A stretch of DNA of 64,000 nucleotides from Candidatus Latescibacterota bacterium. GTDB lineage: Bacteria > Latescibacterota > UBA2968 > UBA8231. Below, piece by piece: positions 53,384 through 64,000 of the stretch; the stretch's first letter is position 1, and the number at the start of each line of letters is the position of its first letter. Made by a program: the position numbers and the translations under genes. Where the stretch lies: positions 3,264,001 through 3,328,000 of the forward strand of contig CBDETY010000003.1 of assembly GCA_965243025.1 (NCBI GenBank), in the 5' to 3' direction. The notes under the pieces were generated by a model that worked only from the letters and a program-made list of their open reading frames with translations, did not search any database and was not told where the DNA came from.

Positions 53384-55282
53384 ATGGCGAACGGCCTCTA
53401 CGACGTGATTACCGAACGCGACGTAATGGTGGAGATGCGCGACGGAGTGCGGCTCGCCACCGACCTCTACTTCCCCGCCCGCGGCGGGGAACCGCTTCCC
53501 GGCAGGTTCCCGGCGGTCTTCCACCGCACCCCCTACGACAAGAGCGACGTCGAGCGCACCGTCGGGTACGGCCGCTTCTTCGCGCAGCGCGGGTACGTCG
53601 CCGTGTACCAGGACTGCCGGGGGACGTTCGAGTCCGGGGGGGAGGTGAACTTCCTGCTGCCGGAGGCCGAGGACGGGTACGACGCCCTGCAGTGGATCGA
53701 CCGGCAGCCCTGGAGCGACGGCAAAGTGGGGTCGTGGGGGACCTCCTGGTCCGGCTGGACGCAGACGGCGATGGCGGCGCTGGGGCCGGCAAACCTCAAG
53801 GCGATGGTCGTCAACATGAGCGGCGCCGACGCCCACGAGTCCTCGGTGCGGCACGGGGGCGCCCTGGAGCTGCGCTTCCTCGCCTGGGCTTTCTGGCATT
53901 CGGCCGCCAACACGCAACGCGCCCTGAAGGCCGACCCGTCGGTCGACGCGGCCCTCAACATCGGCGCGCCCGGTTTCGCCGACTGGCTGACGCGGATGCC
54001 GCTGCGCGAGGGGCAGACCCAGCTCAGGCTGGTGCCCCCCTACGAGAAGTGGGCGCTGGACCTGCTGACCCGGGCCGACTACGACGACTACTGGAGGCAC
54101 CCCAGCTACGCCCCGGCCCTGTTCTGGGACGATTTCCCCGACGTGCCGACGCTGATCGTCGGCGGCTGGTACGATTCCTACACGCGCTCGACCTGCAGGA
54201 ATTTCGAGGGGCTGGCGGCGCGCAAGCAGGGGCCGGTGCGGATGCTCATGGGGCCGTGGACGCACGGGATCCACACCCTGGAGCAGAGCTTTTCCGGCGA
54301 CGTCGAGTTTGGCGAGGAGGCGGCGCTCGACGACTTCAGAAACCTGCACCTGCGCTACTTCGACCGGGCCCTCAAGGGGGTCGACAACGGCGAGGCCGAG
54401 GCGCCGCCGGTGCAGATCTTCGCCATGGGCGGCGGCGGCGGGCACCGCACCAGCAGCGGCCGGCTGTTCCACGGCGGCCGCTGGCGCGACGAAGCGGAGT
54501 GGCCGCTGGCGCGGACCAACTACACCAATTACTACCTGCACGGCGACGGCACCCTGTCGACGCGGGAGCCGGACGCCGGCGGCGGGGACACCGTCTACCG
54601 CTTCGACCCGGCCAACCCGGTCCCCTCCATCGGCGGCAACGTCTCCTCCCTTTCGGAGACCGGCCCGCTGCCGGCGGGCATCGGGGATTCCGCCAACGCG
54701 CCCTGGCGGGCGCGGGTGGAGCAGCTGATGGTGCCGGGCGGGTTCGACCAGGTGGAGGGACCGGAGTTCTACGGCTGCGAGCCGCCCTACCTGCCGCTGG
54801 GCTCGCGGCCGGACGTGCTGGTCTTCGCTACCGAGCCCCTCGCCGAAGACATGGAGGTGACCGGGCCGATCGAGGTGAAGCTGTGGGTCTCGTCGTCGGC
54901 CCCGGACACGGACTTCACCGCCAAGCTGATCGACTGGTACCCGCCGAGCCGGTGGTACCCGCACGGGTACGCGCTCAACCTGACCGACAGCATCGCCCGC
55001 CTGCGCTACCGCAACGGGCGCGAAAAGGGGGAGCTGCTGACCCCGGGAGAGACCGCCGGGCTGACGGTCACCCTGTACCCGACGAGCAACCTGTTCGCCG
55101 CCGGGCACCGGATCCGCCTCGACGTCTCCAGCTCGAACTTCCCCCGCTTCGACGTCAACCCCAACACCGGCGACCCGGTCGGCCGGGAGCGGCGGCGCCA
55201 GGGGGCGGACAACAGGGTCCACCACAACCGGGCGCAGCCGTCCCACGTGGTGCTGCCGGTCATTCCATCCGGTAAGGGATAA
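53384..55282 (+). CDS. CocE/NonD family hydrolase (S15 Xaa-Pro dipeptidyl-peptidase-like)
   Basis: MRDGVRLATDLY, RTPY, QDCRG, GTSW nucleophile, GGWYD, GPWTH, GHRIRLDVSSSNFP. Confidence 0.92.
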   Translation: MANGLYDVITERDVMVEMRDGVRLATDLYFPARGGEPLPGRFPAVFHRTPYDKSDVERTVGYGRFFAQRGYVAVYQDCRGTFESGGEVNFLLPEAEDGYDALQWIDRQPWSDGKVGSWGTSWSGWTQTAMAALGPANLKAMVVNMSGADAHESSVRHGGALELRFLAWAFWHSAANTQRALKADPSVDAALNIGAPGFADWLTRMPLREGQTQLRLVPPYEKWALDLLTRADYDDYWRHPSYAPALFWDDFPDVPTLIVGGWYDSYTRSTCRNFEGLAARKQGPVRMLMGPWTHGIHTLEQSFSGDVEFGEEAALDDFRNLHLRYFDRALKGVDNGEAEAPPVQIFAMGGGGGHRTSSGRLFHGGRWRDEAEWPLARTNYTNYYLHGDGTLSTREPDAGGGDTVYRFDPANPVPSIGGNVSSLSETGPLPAGIGDSANAPWRARVEQLMVPGGFDQVEGPEFYGCEPPYLPLGSRPDVLVFATEPLAEDMEVTGPIEVKLWVSSSAPDTDFTAKLIDWYPPSRWYPHGYALNLTDSIARLRYRNGREKGELLTPGETAGLTVTLYPTSNLFAAGHRIRLDVSSSNFPRFDVNPNTGDPVGRERRRQGADNRVHHNRAQPSHVVLPVIPSGKG

Positions 55283-55348
55283 CCGCTCCTGCCCGGTCCG
55301 GCGGCGGTCCCGGGGGACGCCTGAAACCCGCAGCTGCCGGTGGAGGCA

Positions 55349-56119
55349 TTACAACACGACGTCGTTCCCGCTGCCTGCCCGCTCGAGACAGTGGTCGATC
55401 ACGTAGCGGTACTTGGAGTATCCGCGCTGGACAAGGGAGAAACGCTTGATGAGGTCCAGCGCCCAGAAAGGCACCAGGGATTCGGTCTTGATCTCCAGTA
55501 CGACGGGAGACTCCTCCCACCGCGCGGTGACCGCGTCGTCGTAGTAGCTCATCTCCTCGTCATGTCCGGACAGGTCGTACGAACCGCGCATCAGACGGTA
55601 GCGCATGCCGCGGTCGAAGGTGATGCGTCCGTACGCGTCCACCTCGCTGACGAACGGCTCGCGGCGGTAGCGAAGGTGGAGCACCGGTTCGGTGCCGTAG
55701 AGGTGATGGACCTCGGCAAAGGACTGCGGCAGGGCGGCGTACGCCGGCGAGGTGCGTTCGCTCCTGGAGACGTCGAGCACCCCGGGCCAGTCCGCCATGG
55801 CGATTCTGTCGCGGACCTTCCAGACGGTGCGGTCGTGCCGGTACTTGACCTCGAGGGTGGCGGACCCGGCCTCCCCGGTGCCGTAGTAACGGACTCTCGG
55901 TTTGAACCGCAGCAGCTGGCGAAGCCTGGTGTCGTGGTAGAAGCGCAGCCCGGGGGTATCCATGTACACGCTGTTGACCGTGTAGGTTCCCTGCTCCCCG
56001 GGAACGTTGGGGTCGAGTGAAAACAGCGGCTGGATGTAATCGCGGATTTCGGCCGCCTGCGGCTCGGTCACCGCGTACTTCATCTCGTAGCGGTGGATCG
56101 CGGGCAGCTCAACCGCCAT
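55349..56119 (-). CDS. VTC-domain (TTM/CYTH-fold) polyphosphate polymerase-like protein
   Basis: RYEMKY, SVYMDT, KPRVRYY, LEVKYR, YRREPF, RITFD, VLEIK and SKY motifs. Confidence 0.88.
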   Translation of the reverse strand: MAVELPAIHRYEMKYAVTEPQAAEIRDYIQPLFSLDPNVPGEQGTYTVNSVYMDTPGLRFYHDTRLRQLLRFKPRVRYYGTGEAGSATLEVKYRHDRTVWKVRDRIAMADWPGVLDVSRSERTSPAYAALPQSFAEVHHLYGTEPVLHLRYRREPFVSEVDAYGRITFDRGMRYRLMRGSYDLSGHDEEMSYYDDAVTARWEESPVVLEIKTESLVPFWALDLIKRFSLVQRGYSKYRYVIDHCLERAGSGNDVVL

Positions 56120-57422
56120 CGCCGGCCCCCTCCTCCCGCAGGACCCCCGGATCCTCGATGCCCAGCTCGTAGTACAGGAAGTAGAGCGCGTGCGCCAGGC
56201 CGCGCCGGCTCTCGGCGATGGCGACCCGCGCATCCATGATCGTGCGCTCCAGCTCGAGGATCTCGTCGGCCGGCACGGTGGGAAAATCCCTTGCCTCGGC
56301 GATCACCTGCGACGAGCCCTCGATGACGGCCTCCCCCTCCCGCAGAGTCAGGTCGCGGGCGAGCAATGCCTCGGTGTACCCGGACAGCGTCTCGCGGACC
56401 TCGTCGGCGACGCGCTCGCGAACCGCCATGAGCTCGAGCTCGCTTCCCGACACGGCAAGGGAAAGGCCGGCCAGGTTGCCGGCATTGCGGTTGAACAGGG
56501 GGAGCTCGAGGCCGAACCTCAGCTCATACCAGTCGTCGTCGGACCGCTCGAAGTGCCGCGATGCCTCCAGGAAGGAGAACTGCGGCATCATCCGCCAGCT
56601 CTCGCGGTCCCGCCTCTGGAGGGCGAGTTTCCGCTCCTCTTCAGCCAGCCGAAGCTCCGGGCGGTTGGCCCAGGCGAGCTCGAGGAGGCGCTCTTCGTCC
56701 AGGGAGACCCGGGGCAGCGGCTCGGGAATCACCCGGATCTCCCCGGAAATCCCGGTGAGCCGCCCCAACCTGCGCTCTTCCTCCCGCAGTGCGTTCAGGC
56801 TGAGCAGGTGTCCCTGCCGCGCCTCGACGACGGCCATCCTCGCCTTGGTGAGATAGACGATCGATCTGCGGCCGACATCGACCATGGTCTCGATCTGGGA
56901 GATGCGCAGATTCTCGTTCTCGACCCGCATGGCGGCGATGCGGACCAGCTCCCCGTACATGGCGACGTCGGCGCAGGATCGGCGCACCCGGGAGGCCAGC
57001 CAGTGCCGCTCGCGCACCGCCTCGGTCTTGCGTCTCCACCAGGCCACCTGCTCCCGCTGCCGCCGCACTCCCGCCTCTCCGAGAAAGGGAGGACGCCAGC
57101 GGATTCCGACCTCGACCTCCCCCACCCGGGAGTTCCTGCGCCTGAAGGTCGAGTTGCGGACCCGCAGTTCCGGATTGTCGATCCAGTCCAGGGAGCGTAC
57201 CCGGTGGGAGCGGACTCCGGCCTCCGTCTCGAGGGAACCGAGCCGCGGGTTGTTGCTCAATCCCCGGGCGACCGTTTCCTCGACGGTCAGGGCAAGCCCT
57301 GCCTCGCCGGCGGCGTCGTGAACGTCAGGGGCTTCGCCGGTGAGATCGGCCGTGGCGGCCGCCGAACAGGGAATCGCAACGAAAGGGGCCAGCAGCGCGA
57401 GAAACCGGCCGCCTGCCCTCAT
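56109..57422 (-). CDS. TolC family outer-membrane efflux protein
   Basis: Signal peptide; LTVEETVARGLSNNP, ANRPELRLA, GLELPLFNRN; coiled-coil helices. Confidence 0.8.
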   Translation of the reverse strand: MRAGGRFLALLAPFVAIPCSAAATADLTGEAPDVHDAAGEAGLALTVEETVARGLSNNPRLGSLETEAGVRSHRVRSLDWIDNPELRVRNSTFRRRNSRVGEVEVGIRWRPPFLGEAGVRRQREQVAWWRRKTEAVRERHWLASRVRRSCADVAMYGELVRIAAMRVENENLRISQIETMVDVGRRSIVYLTKARMAVVEARQGHLLSLNALREEERRLGRLTGISGEIRVIPEPLPRVSLDEERLLELAWANRPELRLAEEERKLALQRRDRESWRMMPQFSFLEASRHFERSDDDWYELRFGLELPLFNRNAGNLAGLSLAVSGSELELMAVRERVADEVRETLSGYTEALLARDLTLREGEAVIEGSSQVIAEARDFPTVPADEILELERTIMDARVAIAESRRGLAHALYFLYYELGIEDPGVLREEGAGDGG

Positions 57423-58510
57423 GGCCCCGGACTCCTGGCTTCCGGGGCGCCTTCTTCGGCGAGGGCCGCCCGCGGCGAGGACGGCCGATCGACGACACGC
57501 ACGCGCACGGACTCACCGGGCAGCAGGAGGTGACCGGGCTCGAGGAGGACGCGGGCCTTCCTCGCCCACGACATCTGCCCGCGCAGCCACAGTCTTTCCG
57601 GCAGCGGGGAATACCCAGGGTGCACGAAGTCGATCCTCCCCGTCGCGTCGAACTCGCTCGACCGCCTCGACATCACTTCCACTCCCTGTCCGACGGCCAG
57701 CTGCAGGTCCTGCGTCTCGGGGACGTACACCTCGACCGCTGAGGCGTCGGTGCTCTCCACGGCAACGATGGGCACGAAGGCATCGACCGTACTCCCCTGC
57801 AGGGCGAGGATCTCGGAGACCGAACCGGAACAGGGCGACCTGACCGTCCTGTACTCGACCCGCTGATCGATCAGGGTAAGCGACTGGCGGACCTCGTGTA
57901 TGCGCTGCACGCGGTCGCCGAGAAGCGAAATCATGATGCTGTCGCCGTAGGCGCTCGAATCCCCGGCCCCGAGCTTGAGCACGTCGGGCCGGATGAGCGC
58001 GGACTGCTCGGCTACCGACTGCGCCAGGGCATCGCGGCGGATGGTCATGCGGGTCAGGTCGCGATCGTGCCCGAGGCCGGCTTCCTCCGCCGCGACAAGG
58101 GCGTCGATTTCCCGGCCGAGGGCCGCCAGCTCCGCCTCCTCGGCCTGCACTGCGGCGTACTGCTCGGAAACGCGCAGCCGCAACAGGTCGTACTCGACGC
58201 TGTATCGACGCCGGTCGGCCGCCGCTATCGACTCGAGGGCCGCCAGCTCTTCTTTGCGCAGCCGCTTTTCCGCCAGCAGGTCGGAAACGTCGAGGCGGAC
58301 CAGGACCTGGCCGGCGGAAACCCTCTCCCCTACCGCGGCGTTCACCTCCTCGACGGTACCCCCCTCGCGGGCGCCCACCGACCGCACCGTCGACACCACC
58401 GTTCCGAGCAGGTACGGATCCGCCCGCCACTCCCGGTAGCCGTAGACGGCGGTGAGCACGGCCGCAATCCACAGGCCGCGGAAGGCGTTCTTCTTCAGCC
58501 AGCGCTTCAT
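57419..58510 (-). CDS. HlyD family membrane-fusion (periplasmic adaptor) protein
   Basis: N-terminal TM; split lipoyl motifs GTVEEV..AVGERVSAGQVLVRLD and VRSPCSGSV around an alpha-hairpin; LLPGESV. Confidence 0.85.
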   Translation of the reverse strand: MKRWLKKNAFRGLWIAAVLTAVYGYREWRADPYLLGTVVSTVRSVGAREGGTVEEVNAAVGERVSAGQVLVRLDVSDLLAEKRLRKEELAALESIAAADRRRYSVEYDLLRLRVSEQYAAVQAEEAELAALGREIDALVAAEEAGLGHDRDLTRMTIRRDALAQSVAEQSALIRPDVLKLGAGDSSAYGDSIMISLLGDRVQRIHEVRQSLTLIDQRVEYRTVRSPCSGSVSEILALQGSTVDAFVPIVAVESTDASAVEVYVPETQDLQLAVGQGVEVMSRRSSEFDATGRIDFVHPGYSPLPERLWLRGQMSWARKARVLLEPGHLLLPGESVRVRVVDRPSSPRAALAEEGAPEARSPGP

Positions 58511-58513
58511 CGA

Positions 58514-59194
58514 CTACACCTCTACAGCAGAGGAGTGGTTCATGAAGGTGAGCCCGCGAATGCCTTCGATCTGTCCGAGGGCCTCGATCAGCCGGGTCGA
58601 GTCCCCTTCGTCGGCGAGCTTCACCTGGTAGGTGCAGTCGACCAGATCGCCCTGGGCGACGTCGCGCATGGTGACCAGGCCGAAGGTCCTGGGCACCTCC
58701 TGCAGGATCCGGGCAACCTGGGCGGCGAAGGCCGGCCCCGACGGTACCTGGAAGCGCACGAGTCCATCGTATTTCATGCGCGTGCCGAACAGGGAGGCGT
58801 GCATGACCACGGCGATGGTGCAGAACAGGGCGGTCGCGAAGGCGGCGGCGGTGTAGCTCTGCACGCCGCAGGCTACCCCGGCCCCGAGCGCGGCGAACAG
58901 GAACACCAGGTCGCGCGGATCGCGCAGGTTGGTGCGGAAGCGGATGATCGCCAGCGACCCGACGATGCCGATGCCCCTGGCGACGTTGTCGCCGATCGCG
59001 ATCATCAGCAGGCAGGTGATGATGCTGCCGAGCACCATGGTCTGCATCAGACCGCGCGACCAGGAAAGGCCCTGGAACGTCCACTCGTACACCAGTGCGA
59101 TAATGCTCGAAAGGCAGAAGGCGGATACGAGAGAGAGAAGGACCATGTTCCAGTGGAGCTTGATCGTCCCGAAATCGAGCAACAGGCTGTCCAT
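58514..59194 (-). CDS. DUF4956 family membrane protein
   Basis: Several TM helices, IGDNVARGIGIVGSLAIIRFRTNLRDPRD signature, C-terminal ferredoxin/ACT-like domain. Confidence 0.85.
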   Translation of the reverse strand: MDSLLLDFGTIKLHWNMVLLSLVSAFCLSSIIALVYEWTFQGLSWSRGLMQTMVLGSIITCLLMIAIGDNVARGIGIVGSLAIIRFRTNLRDPRDLVFLFAALGAGVACGVQSYTAAAFATALFCTIAVVMHASLFGTRMKYDGLVRFQVPSGPAFAAQVARILQEVPRTFGLVTMRDVAQGDLVDCTYQVKLADEGDSTRLIEALGQIEGIRGLTFMNHSSAVEV

Positions 59195-59437
59195 CAGACA
59201 CTGACTCCCGAAAGACCTTCAACAGGTGAGGTGGAGAGGAAGGGAAAAACGCGGCCGAAAGGGGCCATGAAATTCGTCCCCGGACTGTTCAGGCTCAAGG
59301 GTTTCGCCCGGTTCGGGAATGTCCCGGGCGGGGCTTCCGGCTTTGCCCCGGCCCGGCGTCGGGCGACAGACCGCCGGGAAGTGGACCCTTGACCGTTTCG
59401 CTGCCTCTGGAGCTTTTAAAGCGGTTCGGCCTTCAGG

Positions 59438-62400
59438 TCACCGTTTGCGCGCGACCTTCGACATTTTCCTGGTCACCGGGAACCCGTTGACCGTGATGCG
59501 GCACAGGTAGACGCCCGAGGCGACCTCGTGTCCGGCTGCGGAGCGGCCGTCCCAGACCAGCGAGTGCTCGGCCGCCTCCATGATCTCGTCCTCGGCAATC
59601 GTCGCCACGCGGGCTCCCAGCAGGTTGAACACTCGAACGGTCACGTTGGAAGTTCTCGACAGGCTCAGGAACACCGTGGCGCGGGTGGAAAAGGGATTCG
59701 GATAGCTGACGGCCCTCACCCCCGGGTTCGATGCGGAGCGGGTGCCCGGAGCATTCCACGCTCCCGGGGTCCCTCCGTCGGGTGAGGCGTACCAGTTTTC
59801 GTGGCGGGAGTTGTCGGCCGTGGGCTCGATCAGGGCCAGGGTGAAGCCGGTTCCGTTCGGCTCGGTCGGCCAGGGAGGGCGCTCGTCGTACACCACCGAA
59901 TCGACCACCCGCTCCGAGCCGGTCAGAAGAGTGACGCGCTCCCCGCGGCTGCTCAGGCCGAAGGGAAAGTCTCCGAGACAGCCATCGGTCTCCGGATAGA
60001 CACTTCTGAAATCGGTGCTGTCGCGGCACAGCACGGCGTAGCCGCCGGCTTCGAGAAGGAGACCGGGGGGCAGCACGAAGTCGGGCGAGTCCCCCGCATC
60101 GCGAAAACGCCAGCCTCCGATCCCGACGGGGGCGGGGCCGTGGTTGTGAAGCTCGACCCAGTCCCCTGAGTCGAAAGCCTCGCCCGAGTTGTAGTTGATC
60201 TCGTTGATCACGACCGGCGGCTGTTCGGGTGCAACCGGTTCCTGTCCGGACGATGCGAACCGGGCGGCGATCCGGTAGTTCCCCTCGATGGCAATCCTGG
60301 CGCGGGAGGTTTCCGAGACCGGATCCGACCAGGTGTCGAACTCGAACCCCGGTGCCGGCACCGCCGCCAGATCGACGGGCACCCCGTTGAAGTAGAGACC
60401 CGACGAGCGGGAATCCGTCACCGGTACGGTGTTTACATGGATCGCACCCGCTCCCTCGGGCTCGACCTCGAGCGCAAGCGTGGACCGGCCCCCGAGGGAA
60501 AATTTGGTCTGCAGGTGACCCCATACGTGACCAGCCCTCACCCGCGCGAAGGCCCGCATCACCTCGAGATTGGCATCCCACTCCTCTGTCGAAGCGAACG
60601 CATCGCCGTAGAAAGGGGAAGGGTAGGGGGCCCACCGTTCGGAATGGCGGGGTATTTCATCGGCTACGGCGTTCCTCATGCTGTCGATCACGGCCTCGAC
60701 CCGGGCCCTTTCGAAAGTGGTGTTCAGGTGGCTGGCGAACCGTTGAATGAAGTCGTGCCTGACCTCCTCGATCTCGAGCAGCGTTTGCATGAGAAGCGTC
60801 GCCCAGGGCGGATTCGGCCAGCCCCGGCCGGGAGTGGTCGCCAGCGCCACCATGTCGAGCTCGGGAGGGCTGGGGTTCAGGGCCAGGGGCAGGTTGAACC
60901 CGTAGTCCAGGTCGAAGAGAATCCAGCGCCAGCGGCCCCCGGGGCTGCGGGGACGCCAGAACTCCCAGTTGTTGCCGGGCCAGTCGGTATTCGCCACGTA
61001 CATTTCGGCAATCTGGTAGTTGAGGAATTCGTCGAGATCCATGCGGGCCCGTACCTCCTCGATGGCCCCGGCCTCCTCCAGATCCCTGCTCTCGAGGAAC
61101 CTCAGAAGAGACCGATAATGTTCGGCGTCTCCCGTCCTCGCCTCCGAATTGTTGACGAGGTAATCGATTTCGTCCGGTTCGAACCCGTGGTTGTCGGTTA
61201 CGTAGTCGACTGAAATGCGCTCCCGCATGTTGTGGATGCCCCAGTACCGGCCATTGAGAAAAAGAACGGCAGGCCTGTGGGCCTGGTAGTCGATGTCCAT
61301 GCGATCCTTGACCAGGGCCTGCATGATCGCGTCGCGGAGGAGCGTGTAGGTCCAGTCGTTTCCCGAGTTGCGCAGGATGAAACCCTTGTATCGACTCAAC
61401 GGCTTGTCGGGAAAGAGGGGGTAGTATATGGCCTCGTTGCCGTATCCCCGGCGGGCGCGTACGGCGATCGACTTCTGCGGCTGGTTGCGGGACCAGCCGC
61501 CGTGAATCTGCACGCCCACGTCCTGGGAGAATTCCAGACCGCCCCCGGAATCGAAAAACTCGATATGGGCGGGGCGTTCCCAGTCGCGGGTGAAGTTCCT
61601 GCGATCCCCCTCGACATAGATCCCCAGCCTGTCGCTCCAGAGATGTTCCGGGTCGACGGCCAGCGAAACGGCCGGCAGGCTGACCTCGTCGTCGACAAAG
61701 TAGGTGCGAGTCACCACGTCGCTGGGGAGAAGCCCTTTGGCGACCGCGACCGATCTCAAGACCGTCGTGGTTTCGACGCGGACCCCGATCCCGCCGTAAC
61801 GCCTCTTCCCCGTCGGGATGCTGCCCTCGGTAGAGAAGTAGATGCGGGTTTCGGGATCGGGGTGGCTCAAGGTAACGGTGAACGGATGGCCGTAGCGGCC
61901 GCTCTCGTGCGAGAAAGCTGGAGCCTGCGAATGGTCGCGCTTTCCCTGCGCAGCGTTCTTCCTCCCCGGGGAGGGCTCGTCCACGAGGGACCAGGCTTCT
62001 CCGTCCGGCACCCGAGCCCAGGAAACGTCGGGCCGCAGGGGGCCGAATGTCACCGAATCGACGAGCGTGGCGCCGTCGGAAGCGAACAACCCCAGCTGCT
62101 CCCCGTTCGAAGAGAGCCCGAAATTCAAATGGAACCCCGGCTGGTCGCGGTCTCCGTCCGCCCACAGCAGGAGGTATCCGCCGGCGGGGATCGTGGTGGC
62201 CCTGCGGTCATCGGTGGGAAACTGGAAGGCCCCCGGATCGGCGAGGTCGTCGGTGATGAACATGCCGCCGATGTTCACGGCGCGGCCCCCGGCATTGTGC
62301 AGCTCTATCCAGTCGTCGAACTGGCCGTACCGGTCCGGGCAGCAGGACTGGTTGTTCGACATCAGTTCGTTGATCAGCAGCCGCTCGGCAAAAAGCGAAC

Positions 62401-62476
62401 GGGGCAGACTGAAGCAGCCGGCCAGCAGGGCGAGCAGGGGGATGGCCTTTCGGAAGAAGGCCGGGGCCGGAAACAA
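59438..62476 (-). CDS. Secreted CotH kinase family protein with two lamin-tail domains, FN3-associated domain and C-terminal FlgD-Ig-like domain
   Basis: LLINELM...DWIELHN; PAFSHESG; LRNSGND, LNGRYWGIHNMRE, NTDWPGNN, WILFDLDYGF; VVINEINY..DWVELHN; YPNPFS...ASGVYL. Confidence 0.9.
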   Translation of the reverse strand: MFPAPAFFRKAIPLLALLAGCFSLPRSLFAERLLINELMSNNQSCCPDRYGQFDDWIELHNAGGRAVNIGGMFITDDLADPGAFQFPTDDRRATTIPAGGYLLLWADGDRDQPGFHLNFGLSSNGEQLGLFASDGATLVDSVTFGPLRPDVSWARVPDGEAWSLVDEPSPGRKNAAQGKRDHSQAPAFSHESGRYGHPFTVTLSHPDPETRIYFSTEGSIPTGKRRYGGIGVRVETTTVLRSVAVAKGLLPSDVVTRTYFVDDEVSLPAVSLAVDPEHLWSDRLGIYVEGDRRNFTRDWERPAHIEFFDSGGGLEFSQDVGVQIHGGWSRNQPQKSIAVRARRGYGNEAIYYPLFPDKPLSRYKGFILRNSGNDWTYTLLRDAIMQALVKDRMDIDYQAHRPAVLFLNGRYWGIHNMRERISVDYVTDNHGFEPDEIDYLVNNSEARTGDAEHYRSLLRFLESRDLEEAGAIEEVRARMDLDEFLNYQIAEMYVANTDWPGNNWEFWRPRSPGGRWRWILFDLDYGFNLPLALNPSPPELDMVALATTPGRGWPNPPWATLLMQTLLEIEEVRHDFIQRFASHLNTTFERARVEAVIDSMRNAVADEIPRHSERWAPYPSPFYGDAFASTEEWDANLEVMRAFARVRAGHVWGHLQTKFSLGGRSTLALEVEPEGAGAIHVNTVPVTDSRSSGLYFNGVPVDLAAVPAPGFEFDTWSDPVSETSRARIAIEGNYRIAARFASSGQEPVAPEQPPVVINEINYNSGEAFDSGDWVELHNHGPAPVGIGGWRFRDAGDSPDFVLPPGLLLEAGGYAVLCRDSTDFRSVYPETDGCLGDFPFGLSSRGERVTLLTGSERVVDSVVYDERPPWPTEPNGTGFTLALIEPTADNSRHENWYASPDGGTPGAWNAPGTRSASNPGVRAVSYPNPFSTRATVFLSLSRTSNVTVRVFNLLGARVATIAEDEIMEAAEHSLVWDGRSAAGHEVASGVYLCRITVNGFPVTRKMSKVARKR

Positions 62477-62492
62477 GGACCGCCCGAAGCCC

Positions 62493-63857
62493 CTACTTCT
62501 CCCGGTCCGCCACGGCGTCGCGGATCTCGCCGATGCTGTCTTCGAGCCGGTCGAGGCGCTCGTTGGTTTCCTCCACGTCCTTCTGGATCTTCGTCACCAC
62601 CGCGGCCTGCTCCTCCAGCTCCTCGACCTTCACCGAGTCCTCGTCCTTGACCAGCACGCTGGTCAGGGTGGCGGTGAAGACACCCACCAGGACCATCCCC
62701 GTAATCACCAGGAAGACCGTGAGGATTTTCCCGGAAGCGGTCTCGGGATTGTGGATGTCGGCGTAGCCGCCGGTGACCAGGGTGGTGAAGCTCCACCAGA
62801 GGCTCGGCCCGAAGCCCGAGCCGGACTCGAGGCGCTCCAGGCCCATGAAAATGAAGGCGCCGAACACGAGGGACAGCATCCCGTAGAGAAGGGACCGCTT
62901 GAGGAGCCGCACGTCGAGGGTGGAGCTCAGGTGGTCCATGCCGCGCCAGAAGAACAGCCCGACGCGCAACAGCCTCAGCGCCCTCAGGATGCGAACCGCC
63001 CGGAGCAGGCGCCCCAGGCGGACGACTCCCAGGTCGCCGGAGGCGGCGATGACCTGCACCGGGGGCAGCGGTATCGAGGTGATGAAGTCGATCCAGTTGT
63101 TCTTCCAGTACCACTTCTTGGAATCGGCGAGCCTGTACTCGAAGTAGAAGTTGGCCATGAAGAGGCCGCAGCATACCACGTCGATGATCCAGAATATCCA
63201 CAGGGTGCTCACCGGGAAGTGGGGCAGCACCTCGACGACCGGGTCGGCATAGTTTTCCCCGCTGTCGATGATCTTGACCTGCGCCAGCTTTCCCCCGACC
63301 ACCTGCCCGGAAGCAAGGGCGTGCGAACCTTCCTCATCGGAAATTTGGACGTTCACCCGCTCGTACCCTTCTCCCCCGTTCAGAATGAGGATCCGGCTTA
63401 TCTTCCCTTCCTCCACCTCCGCCCTGGCAACGGCGCCGCCGCCGGTGGCCCCGATGCCGAGCAGGTCGACGACGAGGATGGTGATGAGGAACAGAATGAG
63501 GAAGAAAATCAGCAGATCCTTGAGTTTCACCCTGCCGGAACTGCCCAGCACCCTGGCCTGCTCGGCCATCAGGTGTTTCTTCTGGCGCGCCTGCTCGATG
63601 ATCCGGGCCTTGTCCACCAGTTTCTCTTTTTCGGCGTTGAGCCTCGATAGCTGCGCCTCGGCCTTGTCGAGGTTCAGCTCGTACTGCCCGTGCCTTTTGA
63701 TCAGGCTGACCGTCTCCACTCTTTCCGCCATGGCGTCGATCTCTTTCTCTTCGGCGGCCAGCTGGCGGTCCATGCGGTCGATCTCCTGCACCAACACGTC
63801 CTTCATGCGGGTAATGCGTTCGAGGGAGCAGGATTCCAGTCGCTTCGAAAATGACAT
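62493..63857 (-). CDS. 6-TM voltage-gated-type ion (K+) channel with N- and C-terminal coiled coils
   Basis: NWIDFITSIP (S3), RLGRLLRAVRILRALRLLR (S4), SLWWSFTTLVTGGYADI pore region. Confidence 0.85.
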   Translation of the reverse strand: MSFSKRLESCSLERITRMKDVLVQEIDRMDRQLAAEEKEIDAMAERVETVSLIKRHGQYELNLDKAEAQLSRLNAEKEKLVDKARIIEQARQKKHLMAEQARVLGSSGRVKLKDLLIFFLILFLITILVVDLLGIGATGGGAVARAEVEEGKISRILILNGGEGYERVNVQISDEEGSHALASGQVVGGKLAQVKIIDSGENYADPVVEVLPHFPVSTLWIFWIIDVVCCGLFMANFYFEYRLADSKKWYWKNNWIDFITSIPLPPVQVIAASGDLGVVRLGRLLRAVRILRALRLLRVGLFFWRGMDHLSSTLDVRLLKRSLLYGMLSLVFGAFIFMGLERLESGSGFGPSLWWSFTTLVTGGYADIHNPETASGKILTVFLVITGMVLVGVFTATLTSVLVKDEDSVKVEELEEQAAVVTKIQKDVEETNERLDRLEDSIGEIRDAVADREK

Positions 63858-64000
63858 CTCGTTCCGTCTGTGCTCCGGGTTCAGGCCGGTTCGGGGGGTT
63901 GGTGTGCTGCGAACATGTGCCTTGAAAAATAAGGCCGCGTCCGGGATTCAACTTTCAAGGCATGAACCGGGGCGCCGGCAGGCAAGCCCGCTGAACGGCG

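Follow-up and report, generated by a model that had tools for sequence, protein, structure and literature searches.

A Vtc4-like enzyme, a DUF4956 membrane protein and a pump-less adaptor-duct pair form a conserved unit of diderm bacteria: a candidate polyphosphate export machine

Introduction

By what route do bacteria place polyphosphate (polyP) outside the cytoplasm? Extracellular or surface polyP has been reported in several organisms. The question is raised by a gene cluster at positions 55349-63857 of a 64,000-nt stretch of DNA from a Candidatus Latescibacterota bacterium (assembly GCA_965243025.1, contig CBDETY010000003.1, positions 3,264,001 to 3,328,000), the whole of which is called the window below. 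In this cluster, a VTC-domain protein is encoded together with a DUF4956 membrane protein, a HlyD-type adaptor and a TolC-type outer-membrane factor, referred to below as the duct. A first-pass annotation of the same DNA had proposed that polyP is synthesized and exported through the adaptor and duct, that a secreted CotH kinase uses it at the surface and that a neighboring channel supplies counter-ions. Here we report that four of the six genes form a conserved unit without a pump gene, and we consider whether their products could export polyP.

Domain calls on the window proteins were made with Pfam and NCBIfam. The open reading frames (ORFs), the Pfam matches and the sequence itself bear out the six co-oriented genes and the spacings first described for them, and the window genome holds only one VTC gene and one DUF4956 gene, both in this cluster.

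62493-63857, minus strand: voltage-gated potassium (Kv)-like channel, 454 aa (Ion_trans, E 8.4e-15; Ion_trans_2, E 5.2e-10)
59438-62476, minus strand: CotH kinase-like secreted protein, 1012 aa (CotH, E 3.9e-45; LTD, E 1.7e-28)
59195-59437: intergenic gap between the CotH and DUF4956 genes, 243 nt
58514-59194, minus strand: DUF4956 membrane protein, 226 aa (Pfam DUF4956, E 6.8e-12)
57419-58510, minus strand: HlyD/EmrA-type adaptor, 363 aa (HlyD_D23, E 4.2e-13; HlyD_3, E 1.2e-9)
56109-57422, minus strand: TolC-type outer-membrane factor with a signal peptide, 437 aa (OEP, E 5.3e-12)
55349-56119, minus strand: VTC-domain protein, 256 aa (Pfam VTC, E 2.6e-28)

As read from the sequence, 16 nt separate the channel and CotH genes, 243 nt the CotH and DUF4956 genes and 3 nt the DUF4956 and adaptor genes. 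The adaptor and duct genes share a 4-nt ATGA overlap and are translationally coupled as in tripartite pumps and type I secretion systems; the duct and VTC genes overlap by 11 nt. The start of the VTC gene was placed at the ATG at 56119, where orthologue alignments begin, and not at the first ATG of the ORF at 56233.

A four-gene unit conserved among diderm bacteria

The neighborhood of DUF4956 was surveyed in one genome per species, searched with a DUF4956 alignment and limited to the best 80 of at least 565 relatives, chosen only by DUF4956 similarity. Neighboring genes were counted with hidden Markov models (HMMs) built iteratively from the window proteins. An adaptor gene directly follows DUF4956 in 76 of these 80 loci; two of the other four (L065 and L097) end 3-5 nt past DUF4956, and L060 and L073 are real exceptions. 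Where at least 1200 nt of sequence lies beyond the adaptor, a duct gene follows without exception (64/64 loci). The duct gene of Bdellovibrio and the gammaproteobacteria is divergent in sequence yet homologous (hhalign 95.6%, E 1.2e-8, 311 columns). All four genes are present in 63 of the 80 loci, 44 in the order DUF4956-HlyD-duct-VTC and 19 in the order VTC-DUF4956-HlyD-duct, and most of the remaining 17 are cut by contig ends.

Record titles assign these loci to Latescibacterota, KSB1, Neomarinimicrobiota, Ignavibacteriota, Myxococcota (including the cultured Nannocystis), Acidobacteriota, Spirochaetales, Thermodesulfobacteriota, Bdellovibrio (including complete genomes), Gammaproteobacteria (Thiotrichaceae, Arenicellales and Oceanococcus) and others. 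Within this set of 80, every locus with a named lineage belongs to a diderm. Whether HlyD and TolC join VTC and DUF4956 mainly in diderms and consistently without a pump had been left to such a survey by the first-pass annotation; in this DUF4956 subfamily they do so near-universally. Because the arrangement is conserved in other genomes, the four-gene core goes beyond a chance juxtaposition, and the conserved unit comprises DUF4956, HlyD, the duct and VTC only.

A closer comparison covered the window's own relatives. VTC was found in 17 of 41 related genomes, the window's own included, and 20 regions around these VTC matches were mapped with the six cluster proteins (two regions, G008:C382 and G022:C301, were left out of the counts). 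The order DUF4956-HlyD-TolC-VTC recurs in G001 (two loci), G002, G020, G003 and G018, which together represent four genera of the family. G026, a member of another family in the same class, has VTC first (VTC-DUF4956-HlyD-TolC). Ninety-three DUF4956 sequences were also placed in a quick maximum-likelihood tree. In it, a branch with 99% support by the SH-like approximate likelihood ratio test (SH-aLRT) sets apart 10 genes that have no neighboring HlyD and all belong to the window's own family; of the remaining 83 genes, 79 are HlyD-linked. The careful search of this tree is unfinished and its sampling favors the window's subfamily.

Extra copies and remnants of the unit were also seen among these relatives (loci L004, L005 and L007). 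G001 carries the complete unit twice, and an ISL3 transposase gene lies about 3 kb from the second copy; G002 has one locus with VTC, duct and adaptor in which no DUF4956 was detected, and G020 has a duct fragment and a second VTC gene about 5 kb upstream of its complete unit.

Absence of a conventional pump

In line with the first-pass annotation, Pfam matches over the cluster and both flanks revealed no gene of the ATP-binding cassette (ABC), resistance-nodulation-division (RND) or major facilitator superfamily (MFS) type in the cluster or its adjoining genes. A heuristic screen extended this to 80 loci with a DUF4956-HlyD unit (72 survey loci and 8 loci of relatives), taking the ORFs of the unit and of 5 kb on each side and flagging those with at least five hydrophobic segments, with Walker A and ABC-signature motifs, or with at least 900 aa; it is not a full family scan. 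No pump-like ORF was found by this screen inside the unit in any of the 80 loci. Ten flagged flank ORFs were scanned with Pfam and no family recurs: they comprise AcrB-type RND genes on the opposite strand (L037 and L090), an upstream MacB-like permease (L057), an ABC-3 permease on the opposite strand (L068), a PHO4 gene (L094), a Na+/H+ antiporter, a YfhO-like protein, a polysaccharide flippase-like protein and two ORFs without a family. Likewise, the unit flanks of two other genera (L009 and L010) contain unrelated genes and no pump. Within the reach of this screen, orthologous clusters hold no dedicated ABC or RND pump inside the unit, and pumps in its flanks are sporadic. Since no transporter recurs in the flanks, the constant inner-membrane neighbor of the adaptor is DUF4956.

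The VTC protein retains the Vtc4 catalytic set

The VTC domain (PF09359) is matched at 99.6 bits against a cut-off of 23, over positions 2-228 of a 235-position profile. Compared with solved structures as single sequences, the VTC, DUF4956 and CotH proteins gave nothing useful, and profiles were used for VTC and CotH. A profile of 85 VTC orthologues matched Vtc4 best (3g3q, E 1.5e-18), ahead of the inactive paralogues Vtc2 (E 1.3e-11) and Vtc3 (E 4.9e-9). In Vtc4, triphosphate is bound by K200, R264, R266, K281, Y359, R361, S457 and K458, all of which polyP synthesis requires; Mn2+ is held by E426, and K458 is the sole residue of the set that differs in Vtc2 and Vtc3 (10.1101/2023.01.27.525886). 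By profile alignment to 3g3q and 8i6v, K200, R264, R266, K281 and Y359 correspond to K15, R76, R78, K93 and Y152 of the window protein, and R361, E426, S457 and K458 to R154, E210, S236 and K237 (numbering of a 257-aa query that starts one codon before the ATG). Eight of these nine residues are kept in all 85 aligned sequences, and S236 in 84 of them. The earlier suggestion that the protein is Vtc4-like thus gains weight at the level of sequence, as the full nine-residue catalytic set is present and the best profile match is the active Vtc4; we regard it as a candidate polyphosphate polymerase.

VTC is the only Pfam domain of the 256-aa protein, which has neither an SPX domain nor a fused three-helix membrane domain, and no hydrophobic N-terminal stretch was seen by eye; the protein should therefore be cytoplasmic. 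A search of longer proteins, which is weak evidence, found none fused to VTC. One PPK1 and two PPK2 copies are encoded elsewhere in the window genome, so the VTC unit would not be the only route of this genome to cytoplasmic polyP; it would be an extra, specialized one. We count as a link of the unit to phosphate a PHO4/PiT-type phosphate transporter gene on a Thiotrichaceae contig (L094:12116-13777, plus strand, E 2.3e-111), which lies directly downstream of VTC in the same orientation.

DUF4956 is predicted to be an MgtC-like membrane protein

An AlphaFold2 model of the DUF4956 protein (predicted local distance difference test, pLDDT, 77.8) contains helices at 2-39, 47-67, 71-88, 93-110 and 114-133, followed at 143-219 by a C-terminal beta-alpha-beta-beta-alpha-beta unit that matches the ACT fold (2nzc, Z 11.5) and the C-domains of MgtC (7qa5 and 2lqj, Z 8.8 and 8.5). 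The MgtC family of Pfam is matched at 19.3 bits (E 0.0015), under the cut-off of 31.4, over profile positions 1-116 of 121, and weak sub-threshold matches over nearly the whole MgtC profile occur in 52 of 71 members of the DUF4956 subfamily (best E 2.6e-5). The model thus predicts an MgtC-like five-helix membrane protein with a cytoplasmic ACT-like domain. Its most conserved stretch is arginine-rich, with the motif RFRT...R.PRD and with R85, R87 and D95 invariant in 93 sequences, and by the positive-inside rule this segment would face the cytoplasm. DUF4956 is also the most conserved gene of the unit, with 77-95% identity to the window protein within the family compared with 49-86% for the other three. 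We propose that it is the inner-membrane platform or conduit of the machine.

A 512-aa metagenomic protein (P0001, on one contig) that appears to fuse DUF4956 to HlyD was rejected as a probable frameshift read-through across the 3 nt between the two genes. About 45 residues short of its usual end, the DUF4956 part gives way to unrelated sequence, which is followed by HlyD.

Adaptor and outer-membrane duct

The adaptor matches HlyD_D23 and HlyD_3 of Pfam above their cut-offs. Its AlphaFold2 model (pLDDT 91.9) shows an N-terminal membrane helix (2-30), a lipoyl domain, a long alpha-hairpin with helices at 76-143 (68 residues) and 149-220, and a beta-barrel; no membrane-proximal domain was seen in the model, and the hairpin gave no clear match by eye to an R-L-S-type tip motif. 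The top Foldseek matches are EmrA (8zal, 4.5e-19), 4tko and MacA (3fpp, 1.3e-17). The duct scores 46.4 bits for OEP (cut-off 22), and the profile of its orthologues gives full-length matches to SilC (9rmm, 6.4e-24), CusC (1.1e-21), MtrE and OprM.

The window adaptor is a short form without a C-terminal beta-propeller. Among 67 complete orthologous adaptors, 39 are long (565-690 aa) and carry a C-terminal, beta-propeller-like domain of about 330 aa, for example at L033:8670-10742 (plus strand) and likewise in L029, L066, L069 and others. One of three adaptor propellers tested has a sub-threshold Phytase-like match, and the nearest language-model clusters of the domain are DUF3616, Phytase-like and DUF6910, which we treat as leads only. 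One query did not find the propeller in the window genome, an empty answer that shows nothing, and a propeller HMM found no separate propeller gene in the short-adaptor loci. In a related genus, a gene for an SdiA-regulated/Phytase-like/NHL propeller (L009:4059-4919, plus strand) overlaps the end of VTC in the same orientation; the HMM made from adaptor-fused propellers does not detect it.

CotH and LTD proteins are optional partners and the channel is a local neighbor

The CotH protein of the window is composed of a signal peptide, an LTD domain, a CHB_HEX_C domain (CHB_HEX_C_1), the CotH domain, Flg_new_2, a second LTD and a C-terminal sorting domain of the type IX secretion system (T9SS; TIGR04183, 32.5 bits against a cut-off of 23). 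The CotH domain (PF08757) scores 155.2 bits, and its profile matches Bacillus cereus CotH (5jd9) with an E value of 1.7e-62. The catalytic aspartates of Bacillus subtilis CotH are D228 and D251 (PMC7821199). In the window protein, D498 and D522 align with the NFD and WDYD aspartates of B. cereus CotH, which by our count are D224 and D247 and by a constant offset of 4 would correspond to the B. subtilis pair; N503 and K335 accompany them in the alignment. D498 and D522 are conserved in 33 and 32, respectively, of 36 neighboring CotH domains. Two full-length PorU sortases of the T9SS are encoded in the window genome (contig C3), and about 48 further weak matches to the C-terminal sorting-domain region of PorU suggest a large T9SS secretome. 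Because of the sorting tail and the PorU sortases, the CotH protein is probably displayed on the cell surface.

Separate HMMs for the CotH domain and for LTD identified a CotH-domain ORF in 29 of the 80 survey loci and a protein with LTD only in 15; the other 36, including all ten Bdellovibrio loci, have neither. In 40 of the 80 loci, a CotH or LTD ORF of the same orientation lies no more than 300 nt from the core. CotH and LTD proteins are accordingly frequent yet optional partners (44/80 loci), and the inclusion of CotH in the core of the system, as first proposed, could not be upheld: a role of polyP as its phosphoryl donor would be accessory at most. Of the accessory domains, LTD may have the tightest link to the core. 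In three loci, the gene right after VTC encodes a secreted protein with three LTD domains and no CotH (L035:6569-8530, L048:12968-14941 and L061:9814-11325, all on the plus strand), and those of L035 and L048, which are of KSB1/Marinimicrobia type, also end in a T9SS tail.

The best solved relatives of the channel are Kv channels (6uwm, 2.1e-11), with KvAP and KcsA also matched. Its degenerate filter TGGYAD aligns opposite the TVGYGD of Kv channels and an S4-type arginine repeat is present; on this alignment, K+ selectivity is uncertain. The N-terminal half is unusual, with a coiled coil, one hydrophobic helix and a segment of about 70 aa before the voltage-sensor-like helices. A channel HMM detected three ORFs among 102 loci, in L003 and L006 of the same genus and in L002, the extension of the window's own contig. 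Among the mapped relatives, the channel and the large CotH were seen with the unit only in L003 and L006, both of the window's genus, and the channel also lies beside the unit in one metagenomic relative of about 96-97% identity. The idea that it supplies counter-ions thus finds no comparative support, and the channel is most likely an unrelated or lineage-specific neighbor.

A candidate polymerase-driven export machine

In yeast, VTC couples polyP synthesis to passage of the chain through a membrane channel and uses no separate pump. Since an adaptor and duct are constantly joined here to DUF4956 and an intact Vtc4-like enzyme, always without a pump, we read the unit in the same way: DUF4956, adaptor, duct and VTC would be one polymerase-driven machine that exports polyP across both membranes, a reading to which we give about an even chance of being right. 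The Vtc4-like tunnel enzyme would polymerize polyP from ATP at the cytoplasmic face of a DUF4956 oligomer, and chain growth itself would drive the polymer through the inner membrane, as in yeast. The EmrA-like, membrane-anchored adaptor and the TolC-type duct would then take the chain across the periplasm and the outer membrane. Where they are present, separately exported surface proteins could bind or use the polyP, in the window a T9SS-sorted CotH kinase with two LTD domains. From the gene content, the pump-less conservation of the unit, the intact catalytic residues and the folds or families of adaptor and duct, we infer the physical assembly of the four proteins, with DUF4956 as the conduit and polyP as the product that is exported. 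The first-pass proposal of polyP export through VTC, DUF4956, HlyD and TolC stands in part, in that the pump-less unit is conserved and its catalytic set intact; its CotH is not part of the core and its channel has no supported role.

Several observations weigh against this reading. The best solved matches of the duct are the metal-efflux ducts SilC and CusC, which fit export of cations equally well. TolC-type channels carry acidic rings at the periplasmic entrance and are cation-selective, and a bare polyanion would need counter-ions to pass. The five-helix monomer model of DUF4956 shows no pore, and the fold searches explain only its ACT domain, the membrane part having been barely tested by them. 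MgtC is described in the available text of PMC12345266 as a regulator that binds other membrane proteins and not as a channel. A search of longer proteins, again weak evidence, gave no genuine VTC-DUF4956 or DUF4956-HlyD fusions, and in the literature searched we found no report in which the function of a bacterial VTC-domain or DUF4956 protein was measured. Finally, in eleven loci of diderm relatives from the same family, DUF4956 follows VTC and neither HlyD nor a duct adjoins the pair; G020 carries both kinds of locus. Such pairs, which are also seen in Gram-positive bacteria, indicate that VTC and DUF4956 can work without crossing an outer membrane, so export is not obligatory. A complex prediction of DUF4956 with the adaptor from paired-order alignments scored 0.11 against a mark of 0.32 and carries no weight either way.

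Three other explanations of the unit were weighed. PolyP or its phosphoryl groups might be passed to the periplasmic side only and there modify an envelope polymer or protein, in which case the adaptor and duct would export the product or tether the complex and the CotH/LTD proteins would serve in modifying the surface, like the accessory genes of Gram-positive Pel loci. In Streptococcus intermedius, mutation of the DUF4956-type and CotH-type genes next to pel lowers Pel production and aggregation (PMC12345266), and the VTC, DUF4956 and CotH genes directly adjoin pel operons in streptococci, clostridia and bifidobacteria (10.1101/768473). The CotH or LTD genes within 300 nt of the core in half of the survey loci (40/80) point in the same direction, and the weakly phytase- and DUF3616-like propeller on 39 of 67 adaptors suggests periplasmic handling of a phosphorylated ligand. 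However, CotH and LTD are both missing nearby in 36 of the 80 loci, Bdellovibrio included, no polysaccharide-synthesis genes lie in the immediate flanks here, and a purely periplasmic product has no need of a TolC-type duct; we consider this explanation unlikely, though it has the strongest case of the three. The unit might also be a new tripartite efflux system for cations or a small solute, with DUF4956 as the transporter, VTC as a regulator or energizer that hydrolyzes nucleotides or triphosphate, and the ACT domain as ligand sensor. The SilC and CusC matches of the duct fit this, as do the near-full-length MgtC matches in 52 of 71 DUF4956 members and the typical role of ACT domains as ligand sensors. 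Against it stands the polymerase residue set retained in the VTC protein, with the Vtc4-specific lysine in 85 of 85 sequences. We know of no tunnel enzyme that energizes transport, and MgtC itself is not known to transport anything (PMC12345266). Such an efflux system appears to us decidedly improbable.

In the third explanation, the adaptor and duct would be a type I-like secretion route for the CotH and LTD proteins, to which VTC and DUF4956 are merely linked. CotH or LTD genes do abut the unit in 40 of 80 loci, but type I secretion depends on an ABC transporter, of which the screen saw none within the unit. Furthermore, the CotH protein of the window combines a Sec-type signal peptide with a T9SS sorting domain in a genome with PorU sortases, the LTD proteins checked in KSB1/Marinimicrobia loci have T9SS tails, and 36 of 80 units are without CotH or LTD, which together leave this explanation hardly credible.

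More tentatively than the export of polyP as such, we suggest that the polymerase-driven unit could be a fourth kind of diderm envelope-spanning machine, in which a Vtc4-like enzyme docked on an MgtC-like membrane protein takes the place of an ABC, RND or MFS transporter and the duct delivers polyP to the surface in one step, LTD and CotH proteins act as its readers or users and the propeller is a periplasmic polyP-handling module; this is possible, and we hold it to be somewhat short of an even bet.

Relation to known systems

The eukaryotic VTC complex (Vtc4/Vtc3/Vtc1; 3g3q, 7ytj and 8i6v) has the same tunnel catalytic domain with the same nine residues as the protein described here, and the proposed logic, synthesis coupled to membrane passage without a pump, is shared. 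In contrast to the eukaryotic enzyme, which is fused to an SPX and a three-helix membrane domain, the bacterial one is a free soluble protein of 256 aa without either. The membrane partner also differs, being an MgtC-like five-helix protein with an ACT domain that matched no VTC chain, in fold searches that barely tested its membrane part. Moreover, yeast VTC crosses the vacuole membrane, whereas here it is the cell envelope that would be crossed, with an adaptor and an outer-membrane duct added. An evolutionary essay on VTC covers eukaryotes only in its available text (PMC10657179).

With EmrAB-TolC, MacAB-TolC, HlyBD-TolC and CusCBA, the unit shares the adaptor domains (lipoyl, long hairpin and beta-barrel, closest to EmrA and MacA) and a full-length outer-membrane factor. 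These tripartite pumps have an ABC, RND or MFS transporter, whereas in the window and the 80 screened loci none was found within the unit and DUF4956 precedes the adaptor; many of the orthologous adaptors also carry an extra C-terminal beta-propeller, unlike those of the pumps. Synthase-dependent secretion systems (cellulose Bcs, alginate and Pel) export polysaccharides through beta-barrel porins with tetratricopeptide repeat (TPR) scaffolds. Export driven by polymerization would be common to both, but here the polymer would be inorganic and the route would be an efflux-pump adaptor and duct.

MgtC of Salmonella and Mycobacterium (2lqj and 7qa5) resembles DUF4956 in having a five-helix membrane domain and an ACT-like domain, although the sequence match lies under the Pfam cut-off (19.3 versus 31.4 bits). 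We know of no case in which the MgtC gene lies together with genes for VTC, an adaptor or a duct. It has been linked to phosphate homeostasis (PMC12345266).

The closest published arrangement is the group of cotH, polyphosphate polymerase and DUF4956 genes in Gram-positive pel loci (10.1101/768473), represented in S. intermedius by SIR_1592-1594, where DUF4956 is likewise described as an MgtC-like membrane domain with an ACT domain (PMC12345266). The same three families lie side by side there in monoderms, contiguous with pel, and the available parts of these sources mention no adaptor or duct. In contrast, the immediate neighbors of the window unit are Peptidase_S15 and DUF6785/DUF6784 genes and not a pelDEAFG-type operon, and its DUF4956 sits in the separate HlyD-linked clade. 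This three-gene group is the sole published context found in the parts of the sources available. Full-text literature searches, which do not extend to supplementary files, returned neither an account of the unit that includes the adaptor and duct nor an assay of any bacterial VTC-domain protein. There is a substantial chance that the unit represents a categorically new export mechanism.

If polyP export is its function, the unit would be the missing polyP exporter, a dedicated route to extracellular polyP, the first tripartite duct without a conventional pump and the bacterial counterpart of the yeast VTC synthase-translocase. As it occurs in many diderm phyla, including the cultured and tractable Bdellovibrio bacteriovorus and Nannocystis exedens, the idea is directly testable.

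Environmental occurrence and neighboring features

Sequencing runs labeled as sponge or marine metagenome contain 0.28-0.35 of the sampled words of the window, which places the organism or close relatives of it in these settings; polyphosphate cycling is of ecological interest there. Four runs were compared with the window in detail. In run X13, DNA contigs tile positions 55349-63837 with about 3-4% differences, and a single contig runs across DUF4956 and CotH into the end of the channel gene, so that a close relative has the same six-gene arrangement. The metatranscriptomic run X20 contains 24 contig pieces with 90-99% likeness on VTC, duct, adaptor, CotH and channel, and depth in 26 of 30 bins; as such a library may contain DNA and contigs attest to presence alone, expression in a relative is at most weakly hinted at.

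The gap between the CotH and DUF4956 genes may be the border between two transcription units. It contains one weak terminator-like hairpin (59267-59252), in a promoter and terminator scan whose yield was not above chance (5 terminator-like sites against 5.3 expected), and an Rfam search over 55000-64000 gave no match. Downstream, the cluster meets a convergent Peptidase_S15 gene (53384-55282, plus strand). Upstream, past the end of the window, its neighbor is a divergent DUF6785/DUF6784 membrane-protein gene (L002:1020-2954, plus strand), which encodes a multi-helix protein of 644 aa that matches the two families with E values of 1.7e-119 and 5e-22.

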